Shown here one piece after another: positions 23,991 through 38,900 of a DNA stretch of 64,000 nt. Source of the DNA: an uncultured Chthonomonadaceae bacterium (GTDB lineage: Bacteria > Armatimonadota > Chthonomonadetes > Chthonomonadales > CAJBBX01); the NCBI GenBank assembly GCA_964396385.1, contig CAYNFH010000002.1, forward strand, positions 1,047 to 65,046, in the 5' to 3' direction. Position numbers and translations under genes: made by a program. Within the stretch, counting starts at the first letter, position 1, and every line of letters starts with the position of its first letter. The notes below the pieces were generated by a model. It was not told where the DNA came from. It made no database searches and saw only the letters and a program-made list of their open reading frames with translations.

Positions 23991-25325
23991 TCAAGGAAGG
24001 AGAGAACCGTCAAACACATCCAGGTCGACATTCATGCCGGTAGTGGTGTCATCCAGCACGTACTGCCTGCCCAGGCGGCTGGTCCAGCCACCATAGGGCT
24101 GCCATGCACCAGGGCCATCAGACCCCAACCTATCGTCCGTGCGGCTCCAATACCGCACTTCCCACAGTGGCGCCTCTGTCAGGGGGTAGTTGCCCGTAAT
24201 GAGCTGCCAGTCGGAGCGGCGCGTGTAGATGACCGCCTGCCCCGGAACGGCGTTGAGCGCCTCGTAGATGCGGGCTACGCGCGCCGCAATGGAATCCGGG
24301 TCCTGTGGTAGCGGCTCGTTGGAGAGCGGCTCGATGTCTATGGCAATGAAGGAGACGTTGCCCGCCTCCGCGCCAAGCGCCTTCAACGCCTGGCCCACCT
24401 GCCAGTCGCCCGTCTGGATGCCGTTTGGCGCAGGATCGTTCGGGTCGTCCTGGCCACTGTCATCAAAGTTGAGGAGGCAGTAGGCCGCTTTACTCACTCC
24501 CGGGATTGCGGCCCCGGCGCCGCTCAGGATGGACTCGGCGGGGAAGCGGTGTCGCCCGCCCCACGCATCGGCGATCACGAAGCGGGGATGGTACGCCGAG
24601 ACGATAGGACCCCAATTGGACGGGACGCTGGAGAGGTCTATCCCGTGCCGCACGTCGGAGTAGACCTCGAACTCGTAGATCCACCCATGGACGATGGGAT
24701 CGCCGCTCAGGGTGGCGCCAGAGTTGTCGAAGGAATACCGCACCTTACTGGCCGTCACCGGGTCGAAGACGTACTCGTCGGAGTTGGAGTACCCGGAGTT
24801 TGTGCCGTCCTCGTGGTAGTTGCCGTAAACGCGGGCAGCAGCGATGGGGACCCAGTTTGATCCGTCCCAGTAGCTGATGGTCGTATCTGCCGGCACGTGG
24901 TTTGTCTCATCGCCGTGGTGCCAGATTACGACCTTCTGGAAGGTGACGGGGGCGCCGAAGTCGATGGTAGCCTGGCGCGGGCCGGCCGGCTGGATCCAGC
25001 CTCCGCTGTCCCATCCGCCCGTGTGGCCGCCGGTGAAGGCCAGGCCGTTGGCCCAACTGTCGTAGTGCCTCCGGCCGTCTACAATGGACCACTGGTCGGA
25101 GCCGCCGCCCCAGCCTTGGTCGGAGGCCAGGGGGCTGGGATAGCCGGTACGCGAGGTGTTGACGGCAATGTTTACCAGTCCATCGTCCTGCGCGCACGCG
25201 GGCGTACCCAGTGCCGCCCCCAGGAACGCGCATGCTGCCAACGTGGACACAAGGCATCTGTAACTGCAGAGAGCGTTCCCGGCCTGTCTGTTCGGATGGT
25301 CCTTTCCGGAATTGCGGTAGCGCAT
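23991..25325 (-). CDS. Secreted protein: N-terminal discoidin/CBM-like domain + C-terminal GH25-like muramidase domain
   Basis: Signal peptide. FQKVVIWHHGDE...ISYWDGSNW...GWIYEFEVY resembles an F5/8-type C domain. The C-terminal GIDLSSV, FIAIDIEPL (DxE), IYTRRSDW, LWEVRYW and VDLDVFD resemble GH25. Confidence 0.6.
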   Translation of the reverse strand: MRYRNSGKDHPNRQAGNALCSYRCLVSTLAACAFLGAALGTPACAQDDGLVNIAVNTSRTGYPSPLASDQGWGGGSDQWSIVDGRRHYDSWANGLAFTGGHTGGWDSGGWIQPAGPRQATIDFGAPVTFQKVVIWHHGDETNHVPADTTISYWDGSNWVPIAAARVYGNYHEDGTNSGYSNSDEYVFDPVTASKVRYSFDNSGATLSGDPIVHGWIYEFEVYSDVRHGIDLSSVPSNWGPIVSAYHPRFVIADAWGGRHRFPAESILSGAGAAIPGVSKAAYCLLNFDDSGQDDPNDPAPNGIQTGDWQVGQALKALGAEAGNVSFIAIDIEPLSNEPLPQDPDSIAARVARIYEALNAVPGQAVIYTRRSDWQLITGNYPLTEAPLWEVRYWSRTDDRLGSDGPGAWQPYGGWTSRLGRQYVLDDTTTGMNVDLDVFDGSLLP

Positions 25326-25374: not shown

Positions 25375-26478
25375 CTACTGAGGCGTGAGCAGGAAGGCGT
25401 GGACCTGGTCGTTGATGTAGCCGTCGCCTATGATCTGGCCGGCGTCATTGATGGCCCAGGCCCGCAGCAGAACGCGCCAGCCGGAATCCGGGGGAATCAG
25501 GTCGTTGAGGTCGTAGACCGTCCCGCTGTCGTACAGGAAGGCGAAGTGGTAGCCGAAGTAGTACTCCGCATAGCCCACCACCTGCCCGAACGAATTGATG
25601 CTATAGGCCGTGCTGCTGGTGCTGGGTCCCAGCGCGCTTGCCGTCAGATCGGTCATTCCTACGGTGTCGCGCCACAGGAACGCATGCGACACGCCGCTGC
25701 CGGTAGTCGAGACGCCGACGACCTCGCCGTTAACCCCTATTCCCGACCCGGAGCTGAAGGTGCCGCCGAGCGTGCCGAGGTCCCGGATGGCTGCCGGTTG
25801 CGGGCTGTCCCACCGGACGGCGTGCGTCAGGCCCGCCGCGGTGAGAGAGGTCCCTGCGATCTGGTTGGCATCATTGACCCCGTTGGCGAAGCTCTCGGGA
25901 CCGCCAAGCGTGCCGAGGTCCTTCATGCCGTTCTGCCGGTTCCAGAAGAAGCCATGCCGCGGATTGGGATACGGGCCGGTTCGGGAGTAGCCGACCACTG
26001 CCAGGAGCGGCTCGTCGATGTTGTTGATGGCCTGCGCGGAAGCTTCCGCTCCCGGCGCGAGCACGCCCAGGTCCTGCGGGAAGTAGTCCGGCGGCTCCCA
26101 AAGGATGGCGTGATGGCCGCCGGAGTCCTGGATGTCGCCGGCTGCCGCGCCGGCCGCGTTGATGCCGTTGGCCACGCTGGGGGCGGTGGCGGGGAAGGCG
26201 GGAGCGTTGGGCAGCACCGCGATGGCGCCCGTCGTCGCGTTCGGGAAATCGGGCGTCCAGAGAAAGGCGCGGCCCGTCCCGTTTGGCAGGTAAGAACCGC
26301 CCACGACCTGGCCGCCGATGTTCAGTCCGAAGGCGTTAGAGCCCACCCGGCCGCTTGAGCCGCCGAGGGTGCCGAGGTCCGTGATGGCGAAGCTCGGCTG
26401 TGCGGCGGCGGGCCGCAGGATACACGACGCGGCGAGAGGGATTACAGCAGCGGTGATCTTGAGAATCGAGCGCATCAT
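25375..26478 (-). CDS. HAF-repeat extracellular protein
   Basis: Signal peptide plus repeated GG...A.GIN..GQVVG......HAFLW units (RAFLWTP, HAILWEP, HGFFWNR, HAVRWD, HAFLWRD, FAFLYD, HAFLLTPQ). Confidence 0.8.
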   Translation of the reverse strand: MMRSILKITAAVIPLAASCILRPAAAQPSFAITDLGTLGGSSGRVGSNAFGLNIGGQVVGGSYLPNGTGRAFLWTPDFPNATTGAIAVLPNAPAFPATAPSVANGINAAGAAAGDIQDSGGHHAILWEPPDYFPQDLGVLAPGAEASAQAINNIDEPLLAVVGYSRTGPYPNPRHGFFWNRQNGMKDLGTLGGPESFANGVNDANQIAGTSLTAAGLTHAVRWDSPQPAAIRDLGTLGGTFSSGSGIGVNGEVVGVSTTGSGVSHAFLWRDTVGMTDLTASALGPSTSSTAYSINSFGQVVGYAEYYFGYHFAFLYDSGTVYDLNDLIPPDSGWRVLLRAWAINDAGQIIGDGYINDQVHAFLLTPQ

Positions 26479-26541: not shown

Positions 26542-27786
26542 TCACGGGCTAAACGTGTAGACACTGACGTCGCTATTGCCACCGCGGTTGGCTGTGAAGA
26601 CCAGGGTTCCGTCGAAGCTGAAAATGACGCCGGCCGCGGATGCTCCAGAATCGTCGCTGGACTCAGGGGAGCCAGTCACGTTGGTCATGGTGGAGGTATC
26701 CAGTACAGACAATTTGTTTGAATACCGCAGCACTGCTACGACGTAGGCGCCCGTCGGGTCTACGACCAGTCCGCTGACGGCGTCCGCCACCGTGGTGGAA
26801 CCGATCTGCAAGAGCGAGAGTGCCCCTGTCCCAGGGTCAATGCTGTACTGTACGACTCTCCCATCATTCGTCCCGGCATAGAGGCTGGAAGCGTCTGGAC
26901 TGAGGGCTATGCTGCCCGAGCTCGAGACACCATTGGGAAGCGTGAATGGCGAGCCACCGACTGCCCCAAGAGTACCGTCATCGGCGATCTTGAACACAGA
27001 GATATTGTTCGATCCCTCGTTGTCAACATACAGCCGGTTATCCGGACCCGCAACCAGCCTTGGAGGAGCATACGCACCGCCGAACCCGGCGCCGCTCCCT
27101 CCTGTGGCCACAACCGCGCCAGCCGTCAATGTGCCGTTCGGGTTGACGCTGTAGCTGCGTACGGTGTTGGGCGAAGAGTTATTTGCGACGTAGATGAAGT
27201 CCCCACCTGGCACGGAGACATACTGGATGCCGTTCAGCGGCGCTGCCGAATCACCTGGGGATACTGCCTGAATTTGCGCAAGCGTACCGTCTGGTGCCAC
27301 CGAATACACCGTCAATTCGTCCGCGTTTCCGCTGATTACGTACAATCTGTCCCCAGCAGGACTGAGCGATAGTCCGGAAGCGGCGGTACATGGTGACGCG
27401 GAGTATGCGCCTTGGGGAGACAGCGAGCCGTCGCCGCCGACGTTTAGCACGGAGATGTTGTTGCTGTTCTGGTTCGTGGTGAACAGAAGGCTCTGATCGG
27501 GGCTGAGCGCCAGCATGTTGGTATAGCTGCCCTGGCTGAAGACGAAGGGCGAGCCCGGGATGCTGGTGAGTGGACCTTGGGCACCCCCCGCCGATGCCAA
27601 TGCCGCGCACAGGAGTCCTGCGCCGAGAGTCCAGGTCAGGTGCAGCGAATGGGGTACACGACTGCCATTGCCGGTTTTCAGATTGCACAAAGCTGATTCC
27701 CCCTTCAAGCGGTTTCCATGTTGTGCCGGACAACTCCGGTTGGATACTTCCTTTACCTCCATGCCGCGATGCCGAGACCCCTGCAA
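26542..27786 (-). CDS. Secreted 7-bladed beta-propeller (lactonase/YVTN-like) protein; start uncertain
   Basis: Repeated blades NNISVLNVGGDGSLSPQG, DELTVYSVAPDGTLAQ, NTVRSYSVNPNGTLTAG, NNISVFKIADDGTLGAV, VVQYSIDPGTGALSL and SDVSVYTF. The signal-like LGAGLLCAALASAGGAQG begins ~50 codons into the ORF. Confidence 0.7.
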   Translation of the reverse strand: MQGSRHRGMEVKEVSNRSCPAQHGNRLKGESALCNLKTGNGSRVPHSLHLTWTLGAGLLCAALASAGGAQGPLTSIPGSPFVFSQGSYTNMLALSPDQSLLFTTNQNSNNISVLNVGGDGSLSPQGAYSASPCTAASGLSLSPAGDRLYVISGNADELTVYSVAPDGTLAQIQAVSPGDSAAPLNGIQYVSVPGGDFIYVANNSSPNTVRSYSVNPNGTLTAGAVVATGGSGAGFGGAYAPPRLVAGPDNRLYVDNEGSNNISVFKIADDGTLGAVGGSPFTLPNGVSSSGSIALSPDASSLYAGTNDGRVVQYSIDPGTGALSLLQIGSTTVADAVSGLVVDPTGAYVVAVLRYSNKLSVLDTSTMTNVTGSPESSDDSGASAAGVIFSFDGTLVFTANRGGNSDVSVYTFSP

Positions 27787-27825: not shown

Positions 27826-28797
27826 TCATGGCAACTTAAGGCCGGTGAAGGTCCAGAAGAAGAACGACAGCGTGTTCCCAAACTGATCGTACATCGCCCC
27901 GTCCAGAGCCAGGTCGACATTGGCGCCCGGCGGGCCCGCCGTAGATGCAAACGTGAACGTAACCGTATTCGTGGTGTGGTTGGGAAGCGAGAAGTCTACA
28001 GGAAGGGGCGTGAGCGGGGAGACCTCCGCGCCCAGGCCCACATCGTCGACCTGAAGGACTGGGATATTGTCGTTGCTAAAGTTGTTGAACCGTAGGTCCG
28101 CGGAGTACTTCCCGTCGGCGAGCCGCCGCAGACCGACCAGCCGGATGAAGAAGCCGGTATCCTGGGGTGAACCCTGGCTCTCCGTGACCTCGACGGCGAA
28201 AGACCCCGTGTTCCCGCGCCAGCCCCACTCGTCCATCGTTCCCAGAAGCAGCCTGGTGGCCCCATCCGGCACCACGACCTGCCTCAGTGTTCCTGACTGG
28301 GTCACTCCCGAGCCGATGAAAAAGACTTGCTGTGCGTCGGGGGCAATGCTCCCGTAGTCCCGATCGTCACGCGTGCTGAAGTCAAGACTGGTGGGCCGAG
28401 GCAACTGGTTGGGCTGGAAAGGCCCGAGGAAGACGCCGAGCAGAGAATTCATAGGAGCAATGATGTTGGAGTTGTCAAACTCCGGTCCGGCCTGGTGCGT
28501 TCCGACGCGCAGGGCATCTCCATCCGGCGGATCGTGAGGAATGCCACCTCCCGCGTCAACGGAGCCGGTGGCCGCGAAAGTCACGATGTCACCCGGGTTG
28601 ACCGGGATGCCCGGCACCTGGATGGGCGATTCCGACGGAGCCGAGTCTCCCGCCCACGCCACCGTTCCGTTGGGCATTCCCGCCAACCATGGGTTTGCAT
28701 AACCTGGCACGCGCACGTTGACCGTGATTTGGGCAAAGGCGATTTGTGTGGTGAGCAGGAGCAGAGTGAGTGTTAGCAACCGCCGCAACAGATTCAT
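27826..28797 (-). CDS. Secreted hypothetical protein
   Basis: The internal ATG 28797 is preceded by GAAGGGGA. Clear signal peptide MNLLRRLLTLTLLLLTTQIAFA; no family recognised. Confidence 0.7.
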   Translation of the reverse strand: MNLLRRLLTLTLLLLTTQIAFAQITVNVRVPGYANPWLAGMPNGTVAWAGDSAPSESPIQVPGIPVNPGDIVTFAATGSVDAGGGIPHDPPDGDALRVGTHQAGPEFDNSNIIAPMNSLLGVFLGPFQPNQLPRPTSLDFSTRDDRDYGSIAPDAQQVFFIGSGVTQSGTLRQVVVPDGATRLLLGTMDEWGWRGNTGSFAVEVTESQGSPQDTGFFIRLVGLRRLADGKYSADLRFNNFSNDNIPVLQVDDVGLGAEVSPLTPLPVDFSLPNHTTNTVTFTFASTAGPPGANVDLALDGAMYDQFGNTLSFFFWTFTGLKLP

Positions 28798-29225
28798 CGT
28801 CTGGTCCCCTTCTAGTGTGTAGGTCGGGACGCGTGGCGCGGCCATGCATCCGCCACTCGCTGCAGGGCAGCATCCGAGGCAGGAGGGTTGAGGCACGGGG
28901 CCACGCGCCGGCAATGAGTGGAGTTGCCCGCCCGGTCCGGCGTCTGGGCCGGAGCATCGCGCGGGAGGAGGCTATGAGAGAACTGGCGGCGCCAACACTT
29001 CAGACCGCAGGCGTCGCACCCGTACAACTTCCTAAGCTATGTCGGCCACTATACCGGGAGCAGGGCTCCAGTTGCTGTTTTTCACCGCACTTTCACCCGA
29101 GCGCCCGGCACTAGGGGAACGGTGAAGAACTGGTGAATTCTAGGCGAACCGCGCGCTCGCCAGCGGGCCGGCGCCTGTTCGTCTGCTGGGGCTCCTGGAG
29201 CTGGCCTCCTAAACAGGCATGGCAC

Positions 29226-29272
29226 AATATAAGCCTCCGCTCGCCTCCTGTCAATGAGTATTTACACCCATT
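29226..29272 (-). promoter_or_regulatory. Sigma70-type promoter TTGACA-17-TATATT with upstream dyad AATGAGT-N6-ACCCATT
   Basis: On the minus strand the -35 is 29249-29254, the -10 is 29226-29231 and the dyad is 29253-29272. The elements are AT-rich against a GC-rich background. Confidence 0.55.
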
Positions 29273-29295
29273 TCTTGGCAGGCTGGGCACGTTCC

Positions 29296-30927
29296 TCACG
29301 CCGTGTACCCGCACACCCAGAGCCGGCCGGCGTTGCCTGACGCGGCGCTGGTGGGGACGAGGCCGGGTGACAAGGGCAGTCGGGACTGGACCTCTCCGGC
29401 GGGAGTCAGGACCGCGATCTCCCGTGTCCGGGAGCAGGGCACGTAGAGCCTGCCCTCGGAATCGACCGACAGGCGACATTCGTCGAGGCCGGTAAGCGGC
29501 ACGGACCGAACAAACTGGCCGTTCACATCGAACTGCTCCACCATCCGGTCCCCTTCCCGTCGCGCCACGGCGTACACGTGGCCGGCAGAGTTCACGGTCA
29601 GGCCGAGGTAGTGCCAGCCGGGGTCCGGCCCCGTTATGGCGCCCGCCGGTGTGCCGTCCGGGTCCCAGATCCGTATTAAGCCGGGCGTGAAGTCGCCAGG
29701 TGCTCCATAGATGCGGCCATCTGGCCCTACGGAGACCTGGAAGTACCAGCCGTCTATGAACCGGCGCACCGTGGTGCCGCCGTCCTCGAACGCCAGGATC
29801 GCATTTGTCAGCCAGCCCGATGTCGCCAGGAGCCGCCCGTCCGCATGGAATGCAAGGCTCAGCGGGCCCACCAGCCGGATCCCGATCTCCGATCCGCCGG
29901 TGAACGTCCGGACGTACTCCCCACCCGGGGTGGACTCCGTAATTGCTCCGCGGCTAAGCCCGTCCTGCGGATGCAGGTCGTGCGCGACCAGGAGATTGCC
30001 GGGCTTGAAACCGTGCTCCGCGGCACGGTCCGGTACGACCGCGATGCTCCGCGCTGCCTCAATGACCTCCTGGCCGAACACGCGTAGGATGCGGCCATCT
30101 GGTCGCAGCTCGCATATCGCGCCGCGCGGCCACTCACGGGGCGCGTCGCCATGGACCTGCCGCTCCATCGCCGCGCTCACCATCAGCAAGAACAGACCAA
30201 GCGCGGCGATAGGTGCGGCCCGACCGGTCTTAATCGGCGGCCTCATCTCCAGCGCCGTGGCGCAGAACGCCCGCAAGGGCTGGACGCCGCGCTCGTGCCG
30301 GCGCGACCTCTCGAGCGACATATCCAGTCCGTCCGGGTCGTGGTACCCCAGCTCTCTGGCGCGGGCAGCCGCCTGGATGGGACCCCGCACGCCGAGCTTG
30401 CGGTAGATGTTCCCGACGTGGCGGTCCACCGTTCGCGGGGCGATGTCCAGGAGCACCGCAATGTCGGCGTGCGGTTTGCCGGACGTGAGTTGCCACAGCA
30501 CCTCGAGTTCGCGGCTGGACAGGAAAGGATGGCCCGCGCAGTCCGGCATCGGGGCCGGCCGCTCGCGCGGGAAGAGACTTCGAAAGAGAAACGCTAAGGC
30601 ATCGCCGCTACCGAGCGATTCAGGCAGGCCCAGGATCTGCTCTGCCAGCACGCCGCCGGAGCCCAGCAGCCCGCCGATGTCCTCCGCGATACGCAGGAGC
30701 GGCTGCAGGTCACCGGCCGGTTCCGGTGCGTCCAGCGGTTGAGCGTGCTGGACCTTGAGCGTGCCTGTGCCTACCACCGGCGCGGCGAGGGCCTCGGCGG
30801 CCAGCAGGATGGTGGTGAGCTGGCCGCGCTGCGCCGCCGTGGGGCCGGTGTAGGCGGGCGGTAGCTGCACCGGCTCGGAATCGGCTGGACGGGACTTCTG
30901 GGTGGAGCGCGTGTGACGCCTGCTCAT
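29296..30927 (-). CDS. Membrane-anchored LuxR/GerE-type HTH regulator with C-terminal NHL/beta-propeller domain
   Basis: HTH is LSSRELEVLWQLTSGKPHADIAVLLDIAPRTVDRHVGNIYRKLGV. There is a single hydrophobic segment, APIAALGLFLLMVSAAM. About 290 aa of propeller-like repeats follow (DGRLLATS, DGRIYGAP, AGHVYAVA, EGRLYVPC). Confidence 0.8.
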   Translation of the reverse strand: MSRRHTRSTQKSRPADSEPVQLPPAYTGPTAAQRGQLTTILLAAEALAAPVVGTGTLKVQHAQPLDAPEPAGDLQPLLRIAEDIGGLLGSGGVLAEQILGLPESLGSGDALAFLFRSLFPRERPAPMPDCAGHPFLSSRELEVLWQLTSGKPHADIAVLLDIAPRTVDRHVGNIYRKLGVRGPIQAAARARELGYHDPDGLDMSLERSRRHERGVQPLRAFCATALEMRPPIKTGRAAPIAALGLFLLMVSAAMERQVHGDAPREWPRGAICELRPDGRILRVFGQEVIEAARSIAVVPDRAAEHGFKPGNLLVAHDLHPQDGLSRGAITESTPGGEYVRTFTGGSEIGIRLVGPLSLAFHADGRLLATSGWLTNAILAFEDGGTTVRRFIDGWYFQVSVGPDGRIYGAPGDFTPGLIRIWDPDGTPAGAITGPDPGWHYLGLTVNSAGHVYAVARREGDRMVEQFDVNGQFVRSVPLTGLDECRLSVDSEGRLYVPCSRTREIAVLTPAGEVQSRLPLSPGLVPTSAASGNAGRLWVCGYTA

Positions 30928-30972
30928 CCGCTGGAGCTCCTTTGTCGTGGTCTCTTGAACAGGCGCAGCCTC

Positions 30973-31019
30973 ATTATCGTGCCCGGCCTGCGTTGCGTCA
31001 ATGGGTATTTACACCCATT
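30973..31019 (-). promoter_or_regulatory. Sigma70-type promoter TTGACG-17-GATAAT of the LuxR-type gene with perfect dyad AATGGGT-ATTTAC-ACCCATT
   Basis: -35 at 30996-31001, -10 at 30973-30978, dyad at 31000-31019. AAAGGAG SD and ATG 30927 follow after a ~39 nt leader. Confidence 0.65.
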
Positions 31020-31175
31020 TTTGTGGCGCTTGGCCGCGAATCCTGGCAGAACCGCGGCGCGGTTGACTTTTGCGCCGGGCGGCCCTAAGATTCCATGCAG
31101 GGCGGAGCCGAGACGGGAGGAAGCGCAGGGTGTCGAAGAGGGACGTCTACCACGAGGTATAGAAGAGGTCGCCGA

Positions 31176-31511
31176 ATGGATCGAATGAGGAACTATACGG
31201 CAATCGTACGAAGTGTCTTGCGAGAACTAGCGGATCGCTTTCCGCCTAACGACGACGTAACCGCCGAGCTCATACTGGATGATGCCGCCGGTCACTACGA
31301 GCTGATGCTCGTGGGATGGGAAGGTGATGACCGTGTCCACGGCTGCGTGGTTCACATGGACGTGCGCGATGGCAAGGTCTGGATCCAGCATGACGGAACG
31401 GAGGACGGCCTCGCGAGCGATCTGGTGGCCGGGGGCATTCCCAAGGACCACATCGTGCTCGCCGTCCACCCTTCCTACGAGCGACCCTACACGGGCCACG
31501 CCGTCGCCTGA
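31176..31511 (+). CDS. xisI: XisI family protein
   Basis: 111 aa starting at ATG 31176 (AGAAGAGG SD). YTAIVRSVLRELA...HYELMLVGWEGDDRVHGCVVHMDVRDGKVWIQHDGTEDG...LVAGGIPKDHIVLA is the XisI signature. Confidence 0.85.
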   Translation: MDRMRNYTAIVRSVLRELADRFPPNDDVTAELILDDAAGHYELMLVGWEGDDRVHGCVVHMDVRDGKVWIQHDGTEDGLASDLVAGGIPKDHIVLAVHPSYERPYTGHAVA

Positions 31512-31555: not shown

Positions 31556-31584
31556 GATTCCTGAACCCCGAACCTTGAACCCTC
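31556..31584. repeat. Heptamer array GATTCC-(TGAACCC/CGAACCT)3 abutting the stop of the 613-aa ORF
   Basis: gattcctgaaccccgaaccttgaaccctc. Confidence 0.8.
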
Positions 31585-33425
31585 TATTGGAGCGGTATGG
31601 CGTCCGCGAAGACGAGGCGGCGCGTGGCCTCCGGGTTCGAGGGGCTCCAGCCGCCGTCTAGGACCTCGAACTCCTGGATCACCAGCCGGTAGTTGCTCTT
31701 GTCTCCGGGCAGCGTGATGTTTCCACGGTAGTTGGCGGGAGAGCCGCCGTCGTCCTTCAACTCGATTGGATCGATTCCCGCCGCCGGCACCCAGCCGATG
31801 GTTGGGCCGGTCTGCCCGGCCAGAGCGTTAGGCGCAGAGGCGCCGAGGTTTGCCGCCGTATTCGGTTGCTTGGTCTCGATGATCACCACCACCTCCGCCC
31901 GACCGCGCTTCGGCGTTTGAGAAACCACGCCGGTGAAGGTCACGGCCACCTGGTCTGCTGTGCCGCCCGGCACCGGCGCCAGCGTCACGCTTCGCTCCGG
32001 AGTGAGCTGGATAAAGTCCGCGCGCACCACCTTGGAGAGATGGCAGTCGTTCACCGCGTACGGCTGGTACCGCGCCAGCGCCAGCCGCACAAAGGGCGTG
32101 TACTGCTCCGGCATCTTGATCTCGATGTCGCAGTACCAGAGGTCCCGCGTGGGGTCGTACTTCACGTCGTGCGGCGCGATGTTCACCGCGAAGTTGTAGT
32201 TGTCCGCCAGCTCCGCAAGCGTGTACTTCGGCGCCTGCGGCAGAATGCCGGGGTTGATGCGGATGATACTGGTGGGAGCGGGCGACGGCTTGACCTGCAT
32301 AACGGTTGACCTCGGAATGGCCAGCCGCAGCAGCGGCTTCGACGCGGGGGCGGGCGCCGGAGCGGGCGCCGCAGGCTGCTTCATGAGCGTGACCGCCTTC
32401 ACCAGGGTCAGTACCAGCGGCGGCTTGTCGCCGGCAAGAGACTGGACCGCCAGCGGGAAGTCTCCCACCCCCAGCTCGGCGTTCCGCGCAGGAGCGGTGT
32501 TCCAAATCGGGTCCTTGCCCCAGAGCGTCACATACGGCTCCAGCGTGGGATTGACAGCGGCGGCCGGCAGCAGTCCCCCTGTGGGCGCCAGAAGTACCGC
32601 CAGCTTCTCGTCGTCGCCGGAGGAGTACCAGGGCCGATCCAGGTAGATTCGGAGCCCGCCTCCGGATCGCTTGGTGGCGTTGGCGCTGCGCTCCCACTTG
32701 AACTGCGGCACGATGTACAGCAGGCTCGGCGCGTCCGGCCGCTTGGAGCTCGGCACGTGCAGGTCCACCGTGGCGGAAGGCCTCTGAAAGTCCGTGGGCT
32801 GCAGGTTCTTATCGGCGAAGAACTGCGGATACCGGGTGGTTGCCACGCAGGAGTAGGTCACCTTCCGGTGCTTAGTGTCGTGGAACTCGTGTCGGAAGCC
32901 GTTGGCCGAGTCGGGAGGAAGCACAAGCTGCTTCTGACCGTAGAACACCTGGGTCTCAAATGCCACGGACTGTCCCGGCACCTGGAGCGGAGGCCCCGCG
33001 GCGCGCAGGTCCACCCACTCCGTCCACGTGCCGCCGATGTTAATCTTCTGCGTGCTGTTGCCGTGGACGTACAGGTTGTCATCGGCCAGGATGGCATATG
33101 TATCGCCCACCGCCCGTCCGGCCCGGAAGTTGGGGCCGAACTTGGGTGGATCGATGGGCTGCTGAACGGCGTGAACAATAGTAATCTGCCGGTAGGGCGT
33201 GAACATCCAGTGCTGGCCGGAGCCCGCCAACTGGCGGAGCTGGTCCATTCGAGGCGCCGCGATACCCTCCTCCAGCAGCCACCGGTAGAGCCCCATGCTG
33301 GTGACGGCATTCGGGTCCATTACGGAGCTGATCAGCACGTTCTCGTGCATCTCGCCCTTGGGTACGGAGACCGTCAGCACGCGGGCCGCCGGGTCCCACC
33401 TGGGCGGAGCCGAGCCCTCCACCAC
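31584..33425 (-). CDS. Giant-operon ORF3 (613 aa), uncharacterised; probably the C-terminal continuation of ORF2 across an in-frame TAG
   Basis: Complex, non-repetitive sequence with no SD before GTG 33425. It is in the same frame as ORF2, five sense codons after that ORF's TAG. Confidence 0.75.
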   Translation of the reverse strand: MVEGSAPPRWDPAARVLTVSVPKGEMHENVLISSVMDPNAVTSMGLYRWLLEEGIAAPRMDQLRQLAGSGQHWMFTPYRQITIVHAVQQPIDPPKFGPNFRAGRAVGDTYAILADDNLYVHGNSTQKINIGGTWTEWVDLRAAGPPLQVPGQSVAFETQVFYGQKQLVLPPDSANGFRHEFHDTKHRKVTYSCVATTRYPQFFADKNLQPTDFQRPSATVDLHVPSSKRPDAPSLLYIVPQFKWERSANATKRSGGGLRIYLDRPWYSSGDDEKLAVLLAPTGGLLPAAAVNPTLEPYVTLWGKDPIWNTAPARNAELGVGDFPLAVQSLAGDKPPLVLTLVKAVTLMKQPAAPAPAPAPASKPLLRLAIPRSTVMQVKPSPAPTSIIRINPGILPQAPKYTLAELADNYNFAVNIAPHDVKYDPTRDLWYCDIEIKMPEQYTPFVRLALARYQPYAVNDCHLSKVVRADFIQLTPERSVTLAPVPGGTADQVAVTFTGVVSQTPKRGRAEVVVIIETKQPNTAANLGASAPNALAGQTGPTIGWVPAAGIDPIELKDDGGSPANYRGNITLPGDKSNYRLVIQEFEVLDGGWSPSNPEATRRLVFADAIPLQ

Positions 33426-33440
33426 CTGGATCAGGAACGG

Positions 33441-35834
33441 CTACGCGTCGAACCAGATCGAAGCCGCATCGAAGGTCACCACCTGCACGGCCATCTGTGC
33501 TCCCGCCGGCAGGTTGCGCAGCGACACTCCGGTGACTATCGGGTCGGGAAGGTAAGGCAGGGCGGTGAGCTGGCCGGAAGGGATGATCACCGGCTTCTCA
33601 CCGCGCACCGGGTCCGCGGTCATCTTGCTCTTATCCAGGTCGCGCAGAGTGCCCTCATGGGTAGAGAGCACCGTGTAGGTCTTGTTGCCCTTGGAGTCCT
33701 GGAGCATGGTGTTCGGGCCATCGAACTTGCCGTACTGCTCCGCGGTCATCTGGTCCGATACGGGCGGTGTGACGTAACGGCGCGTGTCCGGCTCCAGCGT
33801 GGGCGTGTTGTAGTTGCTGCGGATCACGAGGGTATCGACCGATTCGGCCGGCTTCGGGTCCGCACAGTAGGTAAGGTCCGGCGAGCCCAGCGGGTTGTAC
33901 CGGCCGTACAGGTAGTCGCCCGTAGCCACATTGGCGGCGTTGGCCTGGGGCGAGTCCATGGCCAAAGTGTTGCCGGCCAGATCCACGATTCGGGCACGAA
34001 TGCGGTAGGTTGTGCCGTACCGCAGGCGAGGAAGGGATCCTGGGGGCACCGTAAAGGTGGGCACGACCTTTATGCCCGTTGAAGCTGTGTTGGCCGCCGG
34101 ATCGTACTTCGTCATCTGGCCCTTGTTGTCCAGGGACTTGCCGGGCCGCTCCACCGCCAGGCTCCAGCCGGTCCAGCGGATGATGGCGTCGTTGACGAAT
34201 AGCTCTTTGGTATTGGGGTCACTGGAAGCGGCGAGCTGAATGAAGCCTTCGTCCGTCACGCCGGAGATGGGTGGCGCGCTCGGGTCTATGAACTTGTAGG
34301 TGCCCGTGCGCTGGCATACGGAGTGCCACTTCTTGGTCTGATTGTCCCAAACGTCCACGGCGTAGCCGCGCACGAGGTCGGATGCATAAAGGATCTTTTC
34401 ACCGGCTACCGCGCTGGCGGGCTCGACCGCTCCGCCTATTCTCGGCCGAAGGAGCTGCCTGGCAGCCCCTGGCCGCACTGCGCCTGCGACCGGCGCCTCT
34501 ACGACGGCCGTTCGGAGAATGTTCCTGTTGCCGATGATGCCGGCCTCAAGCTCAAGCGCCCTCTTGAAACCGAAGTACGTGAACTTGGCCCGTTCGTTCT
34601 TCGTCACGGCCAGACCGGAAGCGTAGATCGCCGGAAGCCCCTGCTCGTCTACGGGCTCCTGGTTGGCCATCGCCAGGATGGCGGCCTTCTGCGAGACCTT
34701 CATCAACTGTGCGACTGTCGGGCTGAACGTCTGGACCTGGTCCGGCGAACAGAGCCCGTGCCTGACAGCCATGTCCCTAAACGCGATGGTCTGCCGCTCG
34801 GAGCGGAGCAACTTACGCTCCATCCGCCGCTGGAGCATGGTGCTAAACTCGATGAGGTTTAGCGCCGCCCCCTCCACGTCCAAACTGATGAGCTGATAGT
34901 TGGGAGGGCTCAGAACCAGCATCCCGCTCTTCACGTCGCTGCCCGCCGGGTCCGGCGCGGGCAGGAAGGCCGGCATCTCGATGGCGGTCTTGGGCGTCGT
35001 GTTCGTTGTTGCTGCGGGAGCGGTCACCTCCACGTTCACGGTGGAAGCCGCGGGCGCGGTTGGGGGAAGCGTAAACTCCAGGTCGATGACCAGTCCGACG
35101 CGGCGCATGATCACCGGCAGAGAGCCGAGAGAGGCTACCTGCTGATGGAAGTCGAGCACGGGCGGCGCTGGCTTCGGCGTTACTTTCCGGATGGCCGAGC
35201 CGGCCGATGCCTGGCGAACGAAGAAGCCCTTCACCGCCGCGAAATTCAGCCTGGCCGCATCGGCGTTGATCTGGCCGTTCTGCAGAATCGGCGTTTTGGC
35301 CATGAAGATGTTCTTCTGGACCGTGGTGTGGATCTCCGTGAACAGCTTTTCCTCGGGCGTAGGCTCACTGGGCGAGGCGTCCAGGCCGCCATAGTAGCCA
35401 ATGGGCGCCAGGTACGCCTGGGTGGTCAGGATTTCCGTGGGCGGGGGCGCCTCCGGGTGCTGTTCCGCCACCTGCGCGTACTGCTTGCGTATGAATCCGT
35501 GCACCTCGGCCACATCGTACGAATGGATGGGCTTGGCCGTGTTGTCCACGAAGTTGAAGGAGTTAACCGGCGTGCTGGCGGGGAACAGCGCCTTCCAGTA
35601 CTGGCTGCTGGGCTTGTCGCCCACCACCGTCGCCGGAGTCACGGTATTGCCGTAGCGCACCGTCCACTTCTGCGTAGCCAGCGTAGCCGGCCAGTCCAGA
35701 AAGCTGGGAAACTCCGCCAGCGTGGTTGTCTTCGCATTTCCGGTCAGCCGTGGTGAGACCAGGACCGAAACCTGGAGCTTACCGTTCTTAACGCCGTTCG
35801 GCACGGCCGTCCATATTATCGTCTGCGAGCTCAT
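33441..35834 (-). CDS. Giant-operon ORF2 (797 aa), uncharacterised, no signal peptide
   Basis: GGAG SD 6 nt before ATG 35834. N-terminus is MSSQTIIWTAVPNGVKNGKLQVSVLVSPRL; no catalytic motif recognised. Confidence 0.8.
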   Translation of the reverse strand: MSSQTIIWTAVPNGVKNGKLQVSVLVSPRLTGNAKTTTLAEFPSFLDWPATLATQKWTVRYGNTVTPATVVGDKPSSQYWKALFPASTPVNSFNFVDNTAKPIHSYDVAEVHGFIRKQYAQVAEQHPEAPPPTEILTTQAYLAPIGYYGGLDASPSEPTPEEKLFTEIHTTVQKNIFMAKTPILQNGQINADAARLNFAAVKGFFVRQASAGSAIRKVTPKPAPPVLDFHQQVASLGSLPVIMRRVGLVIDLEFTLPPTAPAASTVNVEVTAPAATTNTTPKTAIEMPAFLPAPDPAGSDVKSGMLVLSPPNYQLISLDVEGAALNLIEFSTMLQRRMERKLLRSERQTIAFRDMAVRHGLCSPDQVQTFSPTVAQLMKVSQKAAILAMANQEPVDEQGLPAIYASGLAVTKNERAKFTYFGFKRALELEAGIIGNRNILRTAVVEAPVAGAVRPGAARQLLRPRIGGAVEPASAVAGEKILYASDLVRGYAVDVWDNQTKKWHSVCQRTGTYKFIDPSAPPISGVTDEGFIQLAASSDPNTKELFVNDAIIRWTGWSLAVERPGKSLDNKGQMTKYDPAANTASTGIKVVPTFTVPPGSLPRLRYGTTYRIRARIVDLAGNTLAMDSPQANAANVATGDYLYGRYNPLGSPDLTYCADPKPAESVDTLVIRSNYNTPTLEPDTRRYVTPPVSDQMTAEQYGKFDGPNTMLQDSKGNKTYTVLSTHEGTLRDLDKSKMTADPVRGEKPVIIPSGQLTALPYLPDPIVTGVSLRNLPAGAQMAVQVVTFDAASIWFDA

Positions 35835-35864
35835 AGTTATCTCCGTTGAACAGCTCTACCACCT

Positions 35865-35927
35865 CCCCCAACCCCTCCTTGGTAAGGAGGGGGAACTCCC
35901 TCCCCTTCGCAAGGGGAGGGTTGGGGT
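35865..35927 (-). other. Intercistronic nested hairpins (possible three-way junction) built from CCCCTCC/GGAGGGG-type repeats
   Basis: Hairpin 1 is CCCCTCC-ttggtaa-GGAGGGG (35872-35892). Hairpin 2 is CCCTCCCC-ttcgcaa-GGGGAGGG (35898-35920). They are enclosed by CCCCAACC / GGTTGGGG. Confidence 0.6.
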
Positions 35928-35935
35928 GGGGTGTG

Positions 35936-38900
35936 CTACGCAAAAGCAAACGACGCGCAGTAGGCATCCCAGTCCGGCTCATCCACCTGATCGTGGAATT
36001 TGCCGGTGCCGCCCTGCGGCGCCTGGCCGAGAGCGAACCCCGTTGGGAGCGTGAGGCTGGCAAGCCTCCGGTCCTCCACCGGCAGCGCAGCCGTGTGGGC
36101 CGGCGAACCGGCGAAGGTCTTGGTATACGTGCATCCCACGGTGGCGCTGAAGAATAGGATGCTGATGTGGAACTCTATCTGCGCCGTGCCGGTGACGGAA
36201 CTGGAGTTGTCGACGTTCTGCACATACTCCAGTCCCAAGTACAGCTCAAGAGACAGGCTGATGATTCCCAGCACGCTCACGTACCCACCGGCCTGGAGGT
36301 AGCCCGTCAGGTCGGTCGGATGTCGGGTTACGTCTTTGCCGTGCGAGTCCTTCAACGGGGTCTTACCGTCTGCGGCGAGGACAGTCTCCGGCTTCTTCAG
36401 GCTATAGGTGAGACCTGCCTTGATGTAGACGCCACCGCTCGCGATGGTGATGTCGAAGTTGATCATCGCGCCGAACTGGAAGCCCGCGGTGAGCTCCTGG
36501 AGCTCGTGCACGTCCAGCAGCAAGTGGCACCAGCCTCCGCCGCCGAGCAGCCACACCGTTAACAGGAACGGGTCGCTCTGGGAGCAGAAGTCGAAGGCGA
36601 AGTTCACGGGATCGCCGGTGAATGGTATCCCGACGCCTGCCTTCACCTTGATGTTCTGGAGGCTGAACAGCCCCACGGAGATGGTGGGTATGCCCACCTT
36701 AACCCCGGCATAGATGCCGAGCGGGCTGGTGGTGGGATGGATGTCCGGTCCGATATCGAAGCCGCCTACATTGGGCATGGCGCACGCTGCGGGCAGCATG
36801 GTGTCTGTGTCGGCGTGGCCCCCGCCACCGGAACTGGAGCTGCTGCCCATTCCGGGGATGATGTCCTTCAGCTTATTCACGAAGGCCAGGGCGCCCATGA
36901 ACTTGATGCCGTCGTCCTTGATGCTGGGATCCGGCTTGAAGCTGCTTTCCGGCGACGAGGTGAACTTGAAGTAGTTGAAGTCGATCTCGATACAGCCGAA
37001 CAGCGCCATCTTGAATTCGTTGAGCTTGCCCTCCACGCTCCACGTAGGCGCGGGCGGTTTGGTGCCCGCCATGTCCTTGATGTTCTTGGCGATGTTCGCC
37101 GCCGCCTGGGTCGCGCTCAGGCTCGCGCTTGGGTTCGTGGGCGCGGCCGTGGGTTTGATCACCTCGATCTTGGCCTTGAGCGAAAAGCAGTTCTTCACGT
37201 CCTTGGGCACGAAGAGCGTGCTAGCCGCCGGTGGGTCGTCGGCATAATTCGCGCTCGGAGGGATCGCGATGATCTCCGGCGCCCAGTCCAGGATGATCTC
37301 TACCCCCGACTTCTTCTTGTTCTCCTCGCTGTCATCGTTGGGATACTCCACGGAGTGGATCTTGGGGACGTTCTTGCCGTCCCCGCCCACACCGCCCTTC
37401 ACGAGGTCCGCAAGCACCAGGCAGCCCAGGATGGCGCCGTTATTGGCAAAGAACTGCTTGGGGTCAAAGTTCCAGTCGGTGCCGTCACCGAAAGCACATT
37501 CACCAGGGCGAGCGTCGTCCCGTAACGCGATCTTGCCCGGTACGGCTCCCCCGACCGGCCCGTACTTGCGGGAGAGGGCCGTCATATTCATATTGGGCGA
37601 GCCCACTCCCCCGGTTTTGTCCCCGTTCGCGGCCATGCTGCCGTCGGGTTTCTGGCCGGAGAAGGTCACGTTTACCGGCGCGCCGGCCACCTGAACGTAC
37701 AGCTCGCTGGCGTTACCGGGGCCGAATCCGTTCTTGAGGAAGAGGTCCGGATAGTCCACGCTGGTTGCGTTGTTGAGGTCCGCGAAGGCCCGCAACGCCG
37801 GAACGTTCACCTCCGCCATCTCCAGCGCGGGATAGAACTGCACGCGGCCCGCGGCCACAGTCTGCGGAGGCTGCGCCTTCCAGGTGATGGACTCGGTCTC
37901 CAGCCGCGTGTCGCCCAGCTTCAGGCTGTCCGCGAATACAATCTTGGCCCCGTTTGTAGGACCGATGCGGCGCGCGGCATTCTCCGGTCTGTTATAGTCA
38001 AACATGATGCCCAGCAGGGGCATGGGGTTTCCCGATGGCAGGGCGAGGCTGGACTCTACCCAGCCCAACGGCATAGTGAACTGGGTCTGGTAGCCGTTGC
38101 GGTCGGTGCCGATGAGCACGAAGCGGAAGTCCTCGCCCCCAACGCGCGGCCAGAAGGCGTCCTGTCCGTGCCCGGCCAGGCTGTTCTTGGCGGGATCCCT
38201 GGTCGGATCGTCCAGCATGGGAGTGACCTTCGTGAGGATCTGCACGTCCGTGAACGGCGTGTTGCGCCCGCCGAACATCTGCAGGCCGTCCGGATAGCTC
38301 TTTTCCGGTTCCCGCACCACAATGAACATCCGCTGCCGGTTGACCGCTATCCGCTGGCTGTTCACGAGCACCACCTTGCGCTCCGTGATCTTCACGAGCG
38401 AAGCGCGGTGGCCAAACGGCATCAGGTAGCCTCGATACACCACCTTCACGAACTGGTCACGGCCCATTGTGGCGCGGTGCTGCCACTCCTCCACATCCAG
38501 GCCCTGCACTTCTTCCCAGTGTCCATCCAGCTCTATCCAGGCGCCGATGGAGGAGAGCATGAGCCGGTCCACCGGGATTGCCGACGGAGTCACCGGCTTG
38601 CCGGTAGGAGTTTTGAGGCCGGTGAAGTCCGAGGAGAGCCGCACTATCTCGTAACGGTCGTCCGCATCCAGCGACGTCCGGAACGGGTTTATGGCGTCTC
38701 CCGGATACATGTAGTGGCCCGGCTTGGCGGCGGTGTTGCTTGGACAATCCGGAGACCAGACCGCCCTCACCGTGCGGTAGTAGGCGTCACTCTCGTCCGG
38801 CTTGCCGTTGTTCATCACGGCGAGCCGGGTGTGCCACAACTCCGTCCTCCCGTCAAAGCTAATAGGAGCGGATGCGTGGCTCCAGCCTGAGCCGCCGTGA

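Follow-up and report, generated by a model that had tools for sequence, protein, structure and literature searches.

The GerE helix-turn-helix (HTH) is the third commonest DNA-binding domain of transmembrane (TM) transcription regulators, accounting for 4,943 of 50,302 proteins (9.8%), and the single-TM proteins listed in the same census include Rcas_0145, which combines GerE with Kelch, as well as proteins pairing Trans_reg_C with PD40 (Demey et al., PMC10269533). BguR, a membrane-bound GerE protein that senses through a periplasmic propeller, has been studied experimentally (bioRxiv 10.64898/2026.01.10.698779), and as its example shows, the characterisation of one-component regulators of the propeller-sensor kind has only just begun. 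Here we describe P0001, a regulator encoded on the minus strand of a 64,000-nucleotide (nt) stretch of DNA from an uncultured Chthonomonadaceae bacterium (contig CAYNFH010000002.1; the whole stretch is referred to as the window). The original prediction for this gene was a membrane protein of ToxR/CadC-like topology, an arrangement thought to be unusual for the LuxR family; given that GerE makes up 9.8% of the TM regulators, and given the precedents of Rcas_0145 and BguR, it is not unusual at the level of architecture. Our analysis supports the assignment of P0001 as a one-component LuxR/GerE-family transcription factor, which carries a C-terminal six-bladed NHL-type propeller, represents a small uncharacterised family and is accompanied by a duplicated operator/promoter element. 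With regard to its topology, we prefer a compact cytoplasmic protein with the hydrophobic helix as a buried coupling element over a bitopic membrane protein.

Results

The regulator gene is an intact, single long open reading frame (ORF) at 29296-30927 on the minus strand, and its gene model is sound, because length and N-terminus agree with those of the homologues (542-568 residues). GerE was the sole Pfam domain above threshold in the 543-residue product, where PF00196 scored 51.5 bits over residues 136-188 against a Pfam cut-off of 23.5, identifying a member of the LuxR/GerE group; all NCBIfam matches were restricted to this HTH portion as well. Likewise, comparison of the family profile with the PDB returned GerE (1fse) with E=8e-16 and the C-terminal domains of GerE, VraR and NarL with E-values from ~1e-16 to 3e-12. 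No match to Response_reg, Autoind_bind, Trans_reg_C or Sigma70_r2 was obtained for the regulator even at E up to 1. The N-terminal region of ~130 residues is predicted to be all-helical, with no match of P0001 to the autoinducer-binding domain PF03472, and residues 1-130 are without a Pfam or NCBIfam match, though kept across the family. In the AlphaFold2 (AF2) model calculated with 41 sequences, the N-terminal helices comprised residues 31-52, 75-89, 93-99, 101-105 and 109-118, and the mean predicted local distance difference test score (pLDDT) per 10-residue block ranged from 73 to 93 over residues 21-130.

The propeller was all-beta and confident in the AF2 models, with pLDDT values mostly >90. 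A Foldseek search of the PDB yielded TRIM2/3/71, Brat, Thin, Pizza6 designs and the PknD sensor as the best matches, with a probability of 1.0 and target TM-scores of 0.63-0.76, identifying a six-bladed NHL propeller. At the profile level, the match of the family to PknD (1rwi) had an E-value of 2.7e-19, with the NHL-propeller profile matches spanning E=1e-19 to 1e-31. The Pfam NHL model stayed below threshold for P0001 itself (E=0.73), yet it matched 10 of 41 family members, alongside SGL in 13 and SBBP in three of them. This propeller is the only candidate sensor domain of the regulator. The domain order first described stands, namely an N-terminal region of ~130 residues, the GerE HTH, one hydrophobic helix and a C-terminal propeller.

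To delineate the family, we searched 5.8 billion proteins by word index, which gave six relatives only, at 31-43% identity; HMMER, run exhaustively against 1.84 billion cluster representatives, gave 187 proteins at E≤1e-30. About 60 of these 187 were single-stretch matches of 220-650 residues covering most or part of the profile, with ~42 being full-length, and the family, which is uncharacterised, amounts to about 60 clusters at 50% identity. The remaining matches are giant NHL-repeat or multi-HTH proteins. Many of the high-scoring ones, P0056 and P0067-P0071 among others, have 1,500-7,700 residues and match the NHL or HTH portions of the profile in 6-25 separate places; they differ from P0001 in architecture, and the hit count at E≤1e-30 is inflated because of them. 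A second search with the 41-sequence profile, limited by its word index, found no further family members, a scan of genome contigs with the family alignment found no relatives, and a scan of metagenome contigs gave weak partial propeller or HTH matches only.

GerE was present in all 41 full-length members scanned, and Response_reg (PF00072) was absent from P0001 as well as from all 41. The members carry generic JGI labels only: the homologues P0003 and P0004 are named ‘NarL/FixJ family response regulator’ or ‘CsgD family regulator’ and have no receiver domain. The response-regulator label is wrong, because that domain is missing, and was carried over from the HTH alone. For one further homologue, P0006 (334 residues; homologous locus L002, 10001-11472), a 156-residue ORF follows in another frame, so that the gene is seemingly split by a frameshift. 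The contig name np1212 suggests a nanopore assembly, and a mistake in the assembly is more probable here than a truncation of the protein.

On both sides of the regulator gene we observed the same 24-nt element, AAATGGGTGTAAATAC(C/T)CATTGAC, present in exactly two copies in the window versus 0 expected. Each copy contains an 18-bp dyad, ATGGGT-N6-ACCCAT, abutting the −35 of a strong sigma-70-like promoter on the regulator strand, the dyad being perfect at the upstream copy and having one mismatch at the downstream copy. A promoter scan detected 4 promoter-like sites in 2.7 kb, compared to 0.3 expected. The second promoter starts 23 nt past the regulator stop codon and faces the downstream secreted-protein genes, which are four in number, co-directional and spaced 39-63 nt apart. 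In the window, the −10 hexamer follows 40 nt after the start of the dyad, whose centre is near −43.5, the classical position of a lux box or of a class II activator site. The leader of the second promoter resembles the regulator promoter, its 5′ untranslated region and codons ~114-132 in two colinear blocks on the minus strand (28926-28981 versus 30532-30587, 77% over 56 nt; 29172-29273 versus 30917-31020, 70% over 104 nt; blastn E ~1e-7). Judged from this resemblance, the operon promoter seems to have arisen by partial duplication of the regulator promoter and 5′ end, followed by decay. An Rfam scan of the intergenic regions gave a chance-level match only (M23 RNA, E=0.51).

To compare the window with homologous loci, we analysed four of them, termed L001-L004. 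In the window as in L001-L004, the gene that follows the regulator codes for a product bearing a signal peptide or lipobox; in L001-L004 it lies on the same strand as the regulator gene, after about 200-270 nt. The products are a Tricorn/PD40 propeller in L001, a HAF-repeat protein followed by a Kelch protein in L002, a HAF-like protein in L003 and a YNCE/NHL propeller in L004. The window dyad as such was not found in the homologous loci, where a related, differently arranged dyad is present; the half-site GGGTGTA/TACACCC is common to both. When ATACACCCAAAAGTGTAT, the perfect 18-mer palindrome of L003, served as an independent search pattern with ≤3 mismatches, we identified one site each in L001, L002 and L003 against ~0-0.1 in shuffles. 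Each of these sites lies in the intergenic stretch that adjoins the regulator gene, and the copy found there in L004 is more diverged. At six promoters, the two of the window and those of L001-L004, the distance from the start of the dyad to a downstream −10-like hexamer is 40-42 nt (hand count).

The same 24-nt element precedes the regulator gene and the operon, and a related dyad occupies the equivalent place in the promoters of the homologous loci. It is therefore very probable that the regulator acts on the secreted-protein genes downstream, in line with the earlier suggestion that its neighbours are regulated genes. On the basis of these sequence comparisons, we conclude with moderate confidence that the regulator binds these dyads and controls its own expression together with that of the adjacent secreted-protein genes. 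The poor −35 regions in L001-L004 would fit activation. Repression may nevertheless operate in the window, because both −35 boxes are near consensus there.

The candidate membrane segment, AAPIAALGLFLLMVSAAM, comprises 18 uncharged residues and has its best 19-residue Kyte-Doolittle (KD) mean, 1.84, at residues 237-255, the only part of the regulator with KD ≥1.6. The hydropathy and flanking charges of this helix were assessed across 58 family members, anchored on the invariant Gly244. A hydrophobic block is aligned at the helix position in every relative. Within the family, the mean top-residue frequency was 0.55 for the helix, 0.58 for the HTH and 0.49 for the propeller, whereas the flanking linkers gave 0.33 (residues 189-236) and 0.23 (residues 257-268). 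The helix is hence about as conserved as the HTH, and both linkers are the most variable parts of the protein. Within the core LAxFGLLL, G244, L245 and L247 are kept in ≥90% of 41 members. A basic stretch had also been described between HTH and helix. The run ERSRRHER does exist locally, at ~205-212, but residues 190-233 are nearly neutral overall (8 K/R versus 7 D/E) and the linker is poorly conserved; the basic run is not a conserved family feature.

The propeller cysteines were evaluated in 58 proteins. Cysteine makes up 2.5% of the residues of the family propellers, or about 7 in each, and its positions vary; the counts per propeller were even in 33 and odd in 25 cases, showing no even-number bias, a split that is not discriminating at this sample size. 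Exported proteins usually exclude cysteine or carry even numbers of it (PMC2823432). In nine secreted proteins encoded next to family members, the mature parts, counted by eye, had 0-1 Cys in five and 1-4 in the other four. The 4 Cys of P0001 itself, an even count, are uninformative because Tat- or Sec-exported proteins of the window reach ~1% Cys. Two of them, C272 (window ~30112-30114) and C539 (~29311-29313), sit in the first and last propeller strands and co-occur within the family (17 members with both, 13 and 4 with a single one, 24 with neither; odds ratio 7.8, p=0.001, uncorrected and with kinship ignored); a disulfide or a metal pair between them could close the propeller.

The bitopic alternative places the N-terminal domain and GerE inside the cell, lets residues 237-254 span the membrane once and makes the NHL propeller a periplasmic or extracellular sensor of an envelope or external cue, as presumed for the NHL sensor of PknD, with the helix face A241, G244, L245, L248 and S251 as the would-be TM dimerisation and signalling interface. 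A number of observations favour it and count against the compact cytoplasmic protein that we prefer. The KD of 1.84 is higher than that of the window's scored Pfam-assigned cytoplasmic enzymes (≤1.59) and signal peptides (1.43-1.71), being surpassed only by the window's membrane proteins (2.1-2.8); KD ≥1.6 is reached by 34 of the 58 family members, and a uniformly hydrophobic helix of 18-24 residues between variable linkers looks like that of a bitopic protein. Analogous GerE-TM-Kelch and propeller-TM-GerE regulators exist, the extracellular NHL sensor of PknD matches the family profile, an outward-facing sensor would make biological sense for a regulator of secreted proteins, and C272 and C539 might be joined by a disulfide. 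In a shallow AF2 model with 7 sequences, the helix was isolated and of low confidence (predicted template-modelling score, pTM, 0.64).

The family statistics and the deeper model point the other way. The median run without D, E, K, R, H, Q or N was 15 residues, with <15 in 27 of the 58 members and an apolar run as short as 9 residues, flanked by lysines, in one of them (P0043). The median 19-residue KD was 1.66 (<1.3 in 8/58), and the Hessa biological-hydrophobicity values of the helix, taken as a simple sum, had a median of +3.7, with ≤0 in one member only. A charged or polar residue often lies two positions ahead of the invariant Gly, and the A2 subgroup, the closest homologues of P0001, has a conserved Arg-Gln directly after the helix. 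On average, the HTH-side flank had 1.72 K+R and the propeller-side flank 2.26, with net charges of −0.48 and +0.60, respectively; the propeller-side flank was more positive in 36 and less positive in 15 of the 58 members (Wilcoxon p=0.0014), so that the flank charges run against the positive-inside rule for an N-in orientation. Moreover, conservation at this level is atypical of a lipid-facing single-pass helix. With 41 sequences, AF2 gave a mean pLDDT of 88.2, a pTM of 0.84 and a pLDDT of 91-93 for the helix 237-260. As the propeller makes up only 51% of the chain, this pTM indicates a confident mutual placement of all domains; together with the helix pLDDT it is hard to square with two domains split by a bilayer and suggests a compact protein. 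The propellers are also Cys-rich without parity bias, a soft argument against export given that other exported proteins of the window reach ~1% Cys. Limits of this evidence are that burial of the helix is read from the pTM and pLDDT of the model only, and that the charge and cysteine statistics ignore kinship. Taken as a whole, the ToxR/CadC-like topology, drawn from the hydropathy of a single protein, is not upheld by the family apolar run, the flank charges and the AF2 model; we regard the bitopic arrangement as rather unlikely, and an extracytoplasmic location of the propeller as doubtful to the same extent.

The intermediate hydrophobicity of the helix, above signal peptides and below true TM helices, would also suit a peripheral or amphitropic regulator, in which HTH and propeller are both cytoplasmic and the helix dips into the inner membrane face as a monotopic element; insertion may be reversible, the signal switching between a membrane-held and a DNA-bound state. 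The 9-18 apolar residues are too short for the bilayer in many members and enough for interfacial insertion, and no positive-inside bias is needed. The helix is, however, not amphipathic, its conserved half being apolar throughout, and a pTM this high speaks for one compact state; we regard this arrangement as improbable. A related idea, that the marginally hydrophobic LAxFGLLL helix is itself a switch, either buried between the N-terminal domain and the propeller or inserted in the membrane, and toggles the protein between membrane-held and DNA-bound states depending on a propeller ligand, is a speculation to which we assign a slim chance. That the family is mis-filed, and is in fact one of NarL/FixJ response regulators, quorum-sensing LuxR proteins or sigma/anti-sigma fusions, might be read from the JGI names of the homologues and from weak Sigma70_r4_2 matches in 26 of 41 members. 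GerE nevertheless scores far above sigma region 4 (51.5 versus 17.4 bits), and the regulator lacks any Response_reg, Autoind_bind or Sigma70_r2 match at the permissive E-value given above. Response regulator, autoinducer-binding LuxR protein and sigma/anti-sigma fusion were accordingly rejected, their defining domains being absent, and such a mis-filing is very improbable indeed.

The features of the locus are compiled in Table 1.

Table 1 Features of the P0001 locus, with coordinates given as positions in the window.
Feature	Coordinates	Strand	Description
Regulator gene P0001	29296..30927 (including stop)	-	543 aa, ATG start; from ORF list, homologues and family clusters
N-terminal region, residues 1-130	30538..30927	-	Family-specific helical domain, motif LPxAFGDGxxLxxLFxxLFP
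GerE/LuxR HTH, residues 136-188	30364..30522	-	PF00196, E=7.5e-14
Variable linker, residues 189-236	30220..30363	-	Two short predicted helices, local basic run ERSRRHER; pLDDT 67-75
Hydrophobic helix, residues 237-260 (core 237-254)	30148..30219	-	KD 1.84; motif LAxFGLLL; candidate TM
Six-bladed NHL-type beta-propeller, residues 269-543	29299..30123	-	From AF2, Foldseek and family profile; presumed sensor
Regulator promoter and operator	30973..31020	-	Dyad ATGGGTgtaaatACCCAT (31001-31018), -35 TTGACG, 17-nt spacer, -10 GATAAT; promoter scan 10/12
Second operator/promoter	29226..29273	-	Dyad ATGGGTgtaaatACTCAT (29254-29271), -35 TTGACA, 17-nt spacer, -10 TATATT; promoter scan 11/12
First downstream gene	27826..28797	-	323 aa, signal peptide MNLLRRLLTLTLLLLTTQIAFAQ, no family match
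Second downstream gene	26542..27786	-	Secreted 7-bladed lactonase/SGL-type propeller, PF10282, E=2.7e-21; ORF limits, start uncertain
Third downstream gene	25375..26478	-	Secreted HAF-repeat protein (DUF3466), TIGR02913, E=5.2e-46, six repeats
Fourth co-directional gene	23991..25325	-	Signal-like N-terminus, F5/8 type C (discoidin)

A leader of ~410 nt separates the second predicted promoter from the ATG of the 323-residue gene, and 39 nt separate the first from the second downstream gene. Secreted propeller, HAF-repeat and muramidase proteins had been named as products of the neighbouring genes: the lactonase-type propeller and the HAF-repeat protein were both found, each with a signal-peptide-like N-terminus, but no muramidase was present among the neighbour proteins scanned. 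The HAF-repeat protein is 46% identical, over the best 201-residue BLASTP segment, to the product of the gene after the regulator homologue in L002. For the discoidin gene, PF00754 and PF22633 matched at E ~7e-6, just under the Pfam cut-offs.

On the other side of the regulator gene, upstream and divergent, lies a gene of the XisI family (PF08869, E=3.8e-36) at 31095-31511 (+), with a weaker promoter-like site on the plus strand at 31063-31091. Beyond it, three large consecutive ORFs of 613, 797 and 1691 residues occupy 31584-41011 (-) and have no significant Pfam or NCBIfam match; the 797-residue ORF shows a sub-threshold match to Big_3_2 (E=0.0073), and the 1691-residue protein begins with a twin-arginine-like motif (SRRDLLGLTGAAAAAV). 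The window proteins present in the collection are each a nameless singleton at 90% identity, and cytochrome oxidase I of the window, a fused 839-residue form, is ≤51% identical to any GTDB species representative, indicating that the window stems from a poorly sampled lineage.

Discussion

We propose that P0001 would act as a dimer on the 18-bp dyad, whose centre lies near −43.5, both at its own promoter and at that of the four-gene operon, while the C-terminal six-bladed NHL propeller would bind the signal. The whole protein would stay in the cytoplasm as one compact unit, in which the LAxFGLLL helix (residues 237-260) is buried, packs with the N-terminal helical domain and rigidly couples the propeller to the HTH, so that binding of a ligand or partner to the propeller may alter HTH dimerisation or access to DNA. 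This is our best explanation of the locus, that is, a cytoplasmic LuxR/GerE regulator bound to the dyads of its own promoter and of the operon with a propeller as sensor, and we give it, as a whole, an even chance of being correct. The sequence data establish which domains are present, how they are conserved in the family and that the operator/promoter is duplicated, whereas the binding of the dyad, the choice between activation and repression, the cytoplasmic location and the kind of signal are inferred.

Even with a TM topology, P0001 would add a new family to a class already known rather than found a new class. What is particular to the family is its own N-terminal domain, the internal HTH, the conserved hydrophobic helix, the NHL propeller and the link to secreted HAF-repeat and propeller genes. 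To the one-component regulators with propeller sensors it adds an unstudied arrangement, and it brings a testable regulon, in which the same dyad is present at two promoters and the association with secreted proteins of the HAF-repeat and propeller types is conserved. Should the bitopic model prove true, a LuxR regulator in N-in/C-out orientation with an external NHL sensor would be the first one characterised in that orientation. The protein is also a cautionary case, as a TM call from single-sequence hydropathy was not upheld by family statistics or by deeper structure prediction. The payoff is modest, and nothing established is overturned.

Compared with known systems, ToxR, CadC and TcpP correspond to the order originally proposed for P0001, being one-component proteins with an N-terminal DNA-binding domain, one hydrophobic helix and a C-terminal sensor. 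ToxR-like proteins, however, have an OmpR-type winged helix (Trans_reg_C) and clear TM helices, whereas P0001 has GerE, reversed flank charges and a compact AF2 model; because the DNA-binding fold differs, P0001 is not a member of the ToxR/CadC family. The PknD sensor (PDB 1rwi/1rwl) is likewise a six-bladed NHL propeller joined to a signalling module by a single helix, but its output is a Ser/Thr kinase and not an HTH, and its propeller is known to be extracellular. DadR, HcdR and CadR, LuxR-family activators of the Coriobacteriia (PMC9734109), resemble P0001 in having no autoinducer-binding or receiver domain and in their possible autoregulation; in contrast to P0001, they have 10-12 N-terminal TM helices (twelve in the DadR type), a C-terminal HTH and no propeller.

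A comparable layout is seen in the uncharacterised Rcas_0145 of Roseiflexus castenholzii, in which GerE is followed by one predicted TM segment and a C-terminal propeller. In this comparison, made by Pfam domain string only, its propeller is Kelch (four repeats) and not NHL, and with 454 versus 543 residues the protein is ~90 residues shorter. Regulators of the BguR/SusR type (Bacteroidota) share with P0001 a GerE output coupled to a propeller sensor without phosphorelay, and BguR in addition has an intergenic motif next to its own gene and a single hydrophobic helix between sensor and HTH. Its order is the opposite one, running from a signal peptide through tandem Reg_prop propellers, Y_Y_Y and the TM segment to a C-terminal GerE, whereas P0001 has no signal peptide, Reg_prop or Y_Y_Y, places the HTH before a helix whose membrane span is doubtful and carries an NHL propeller.

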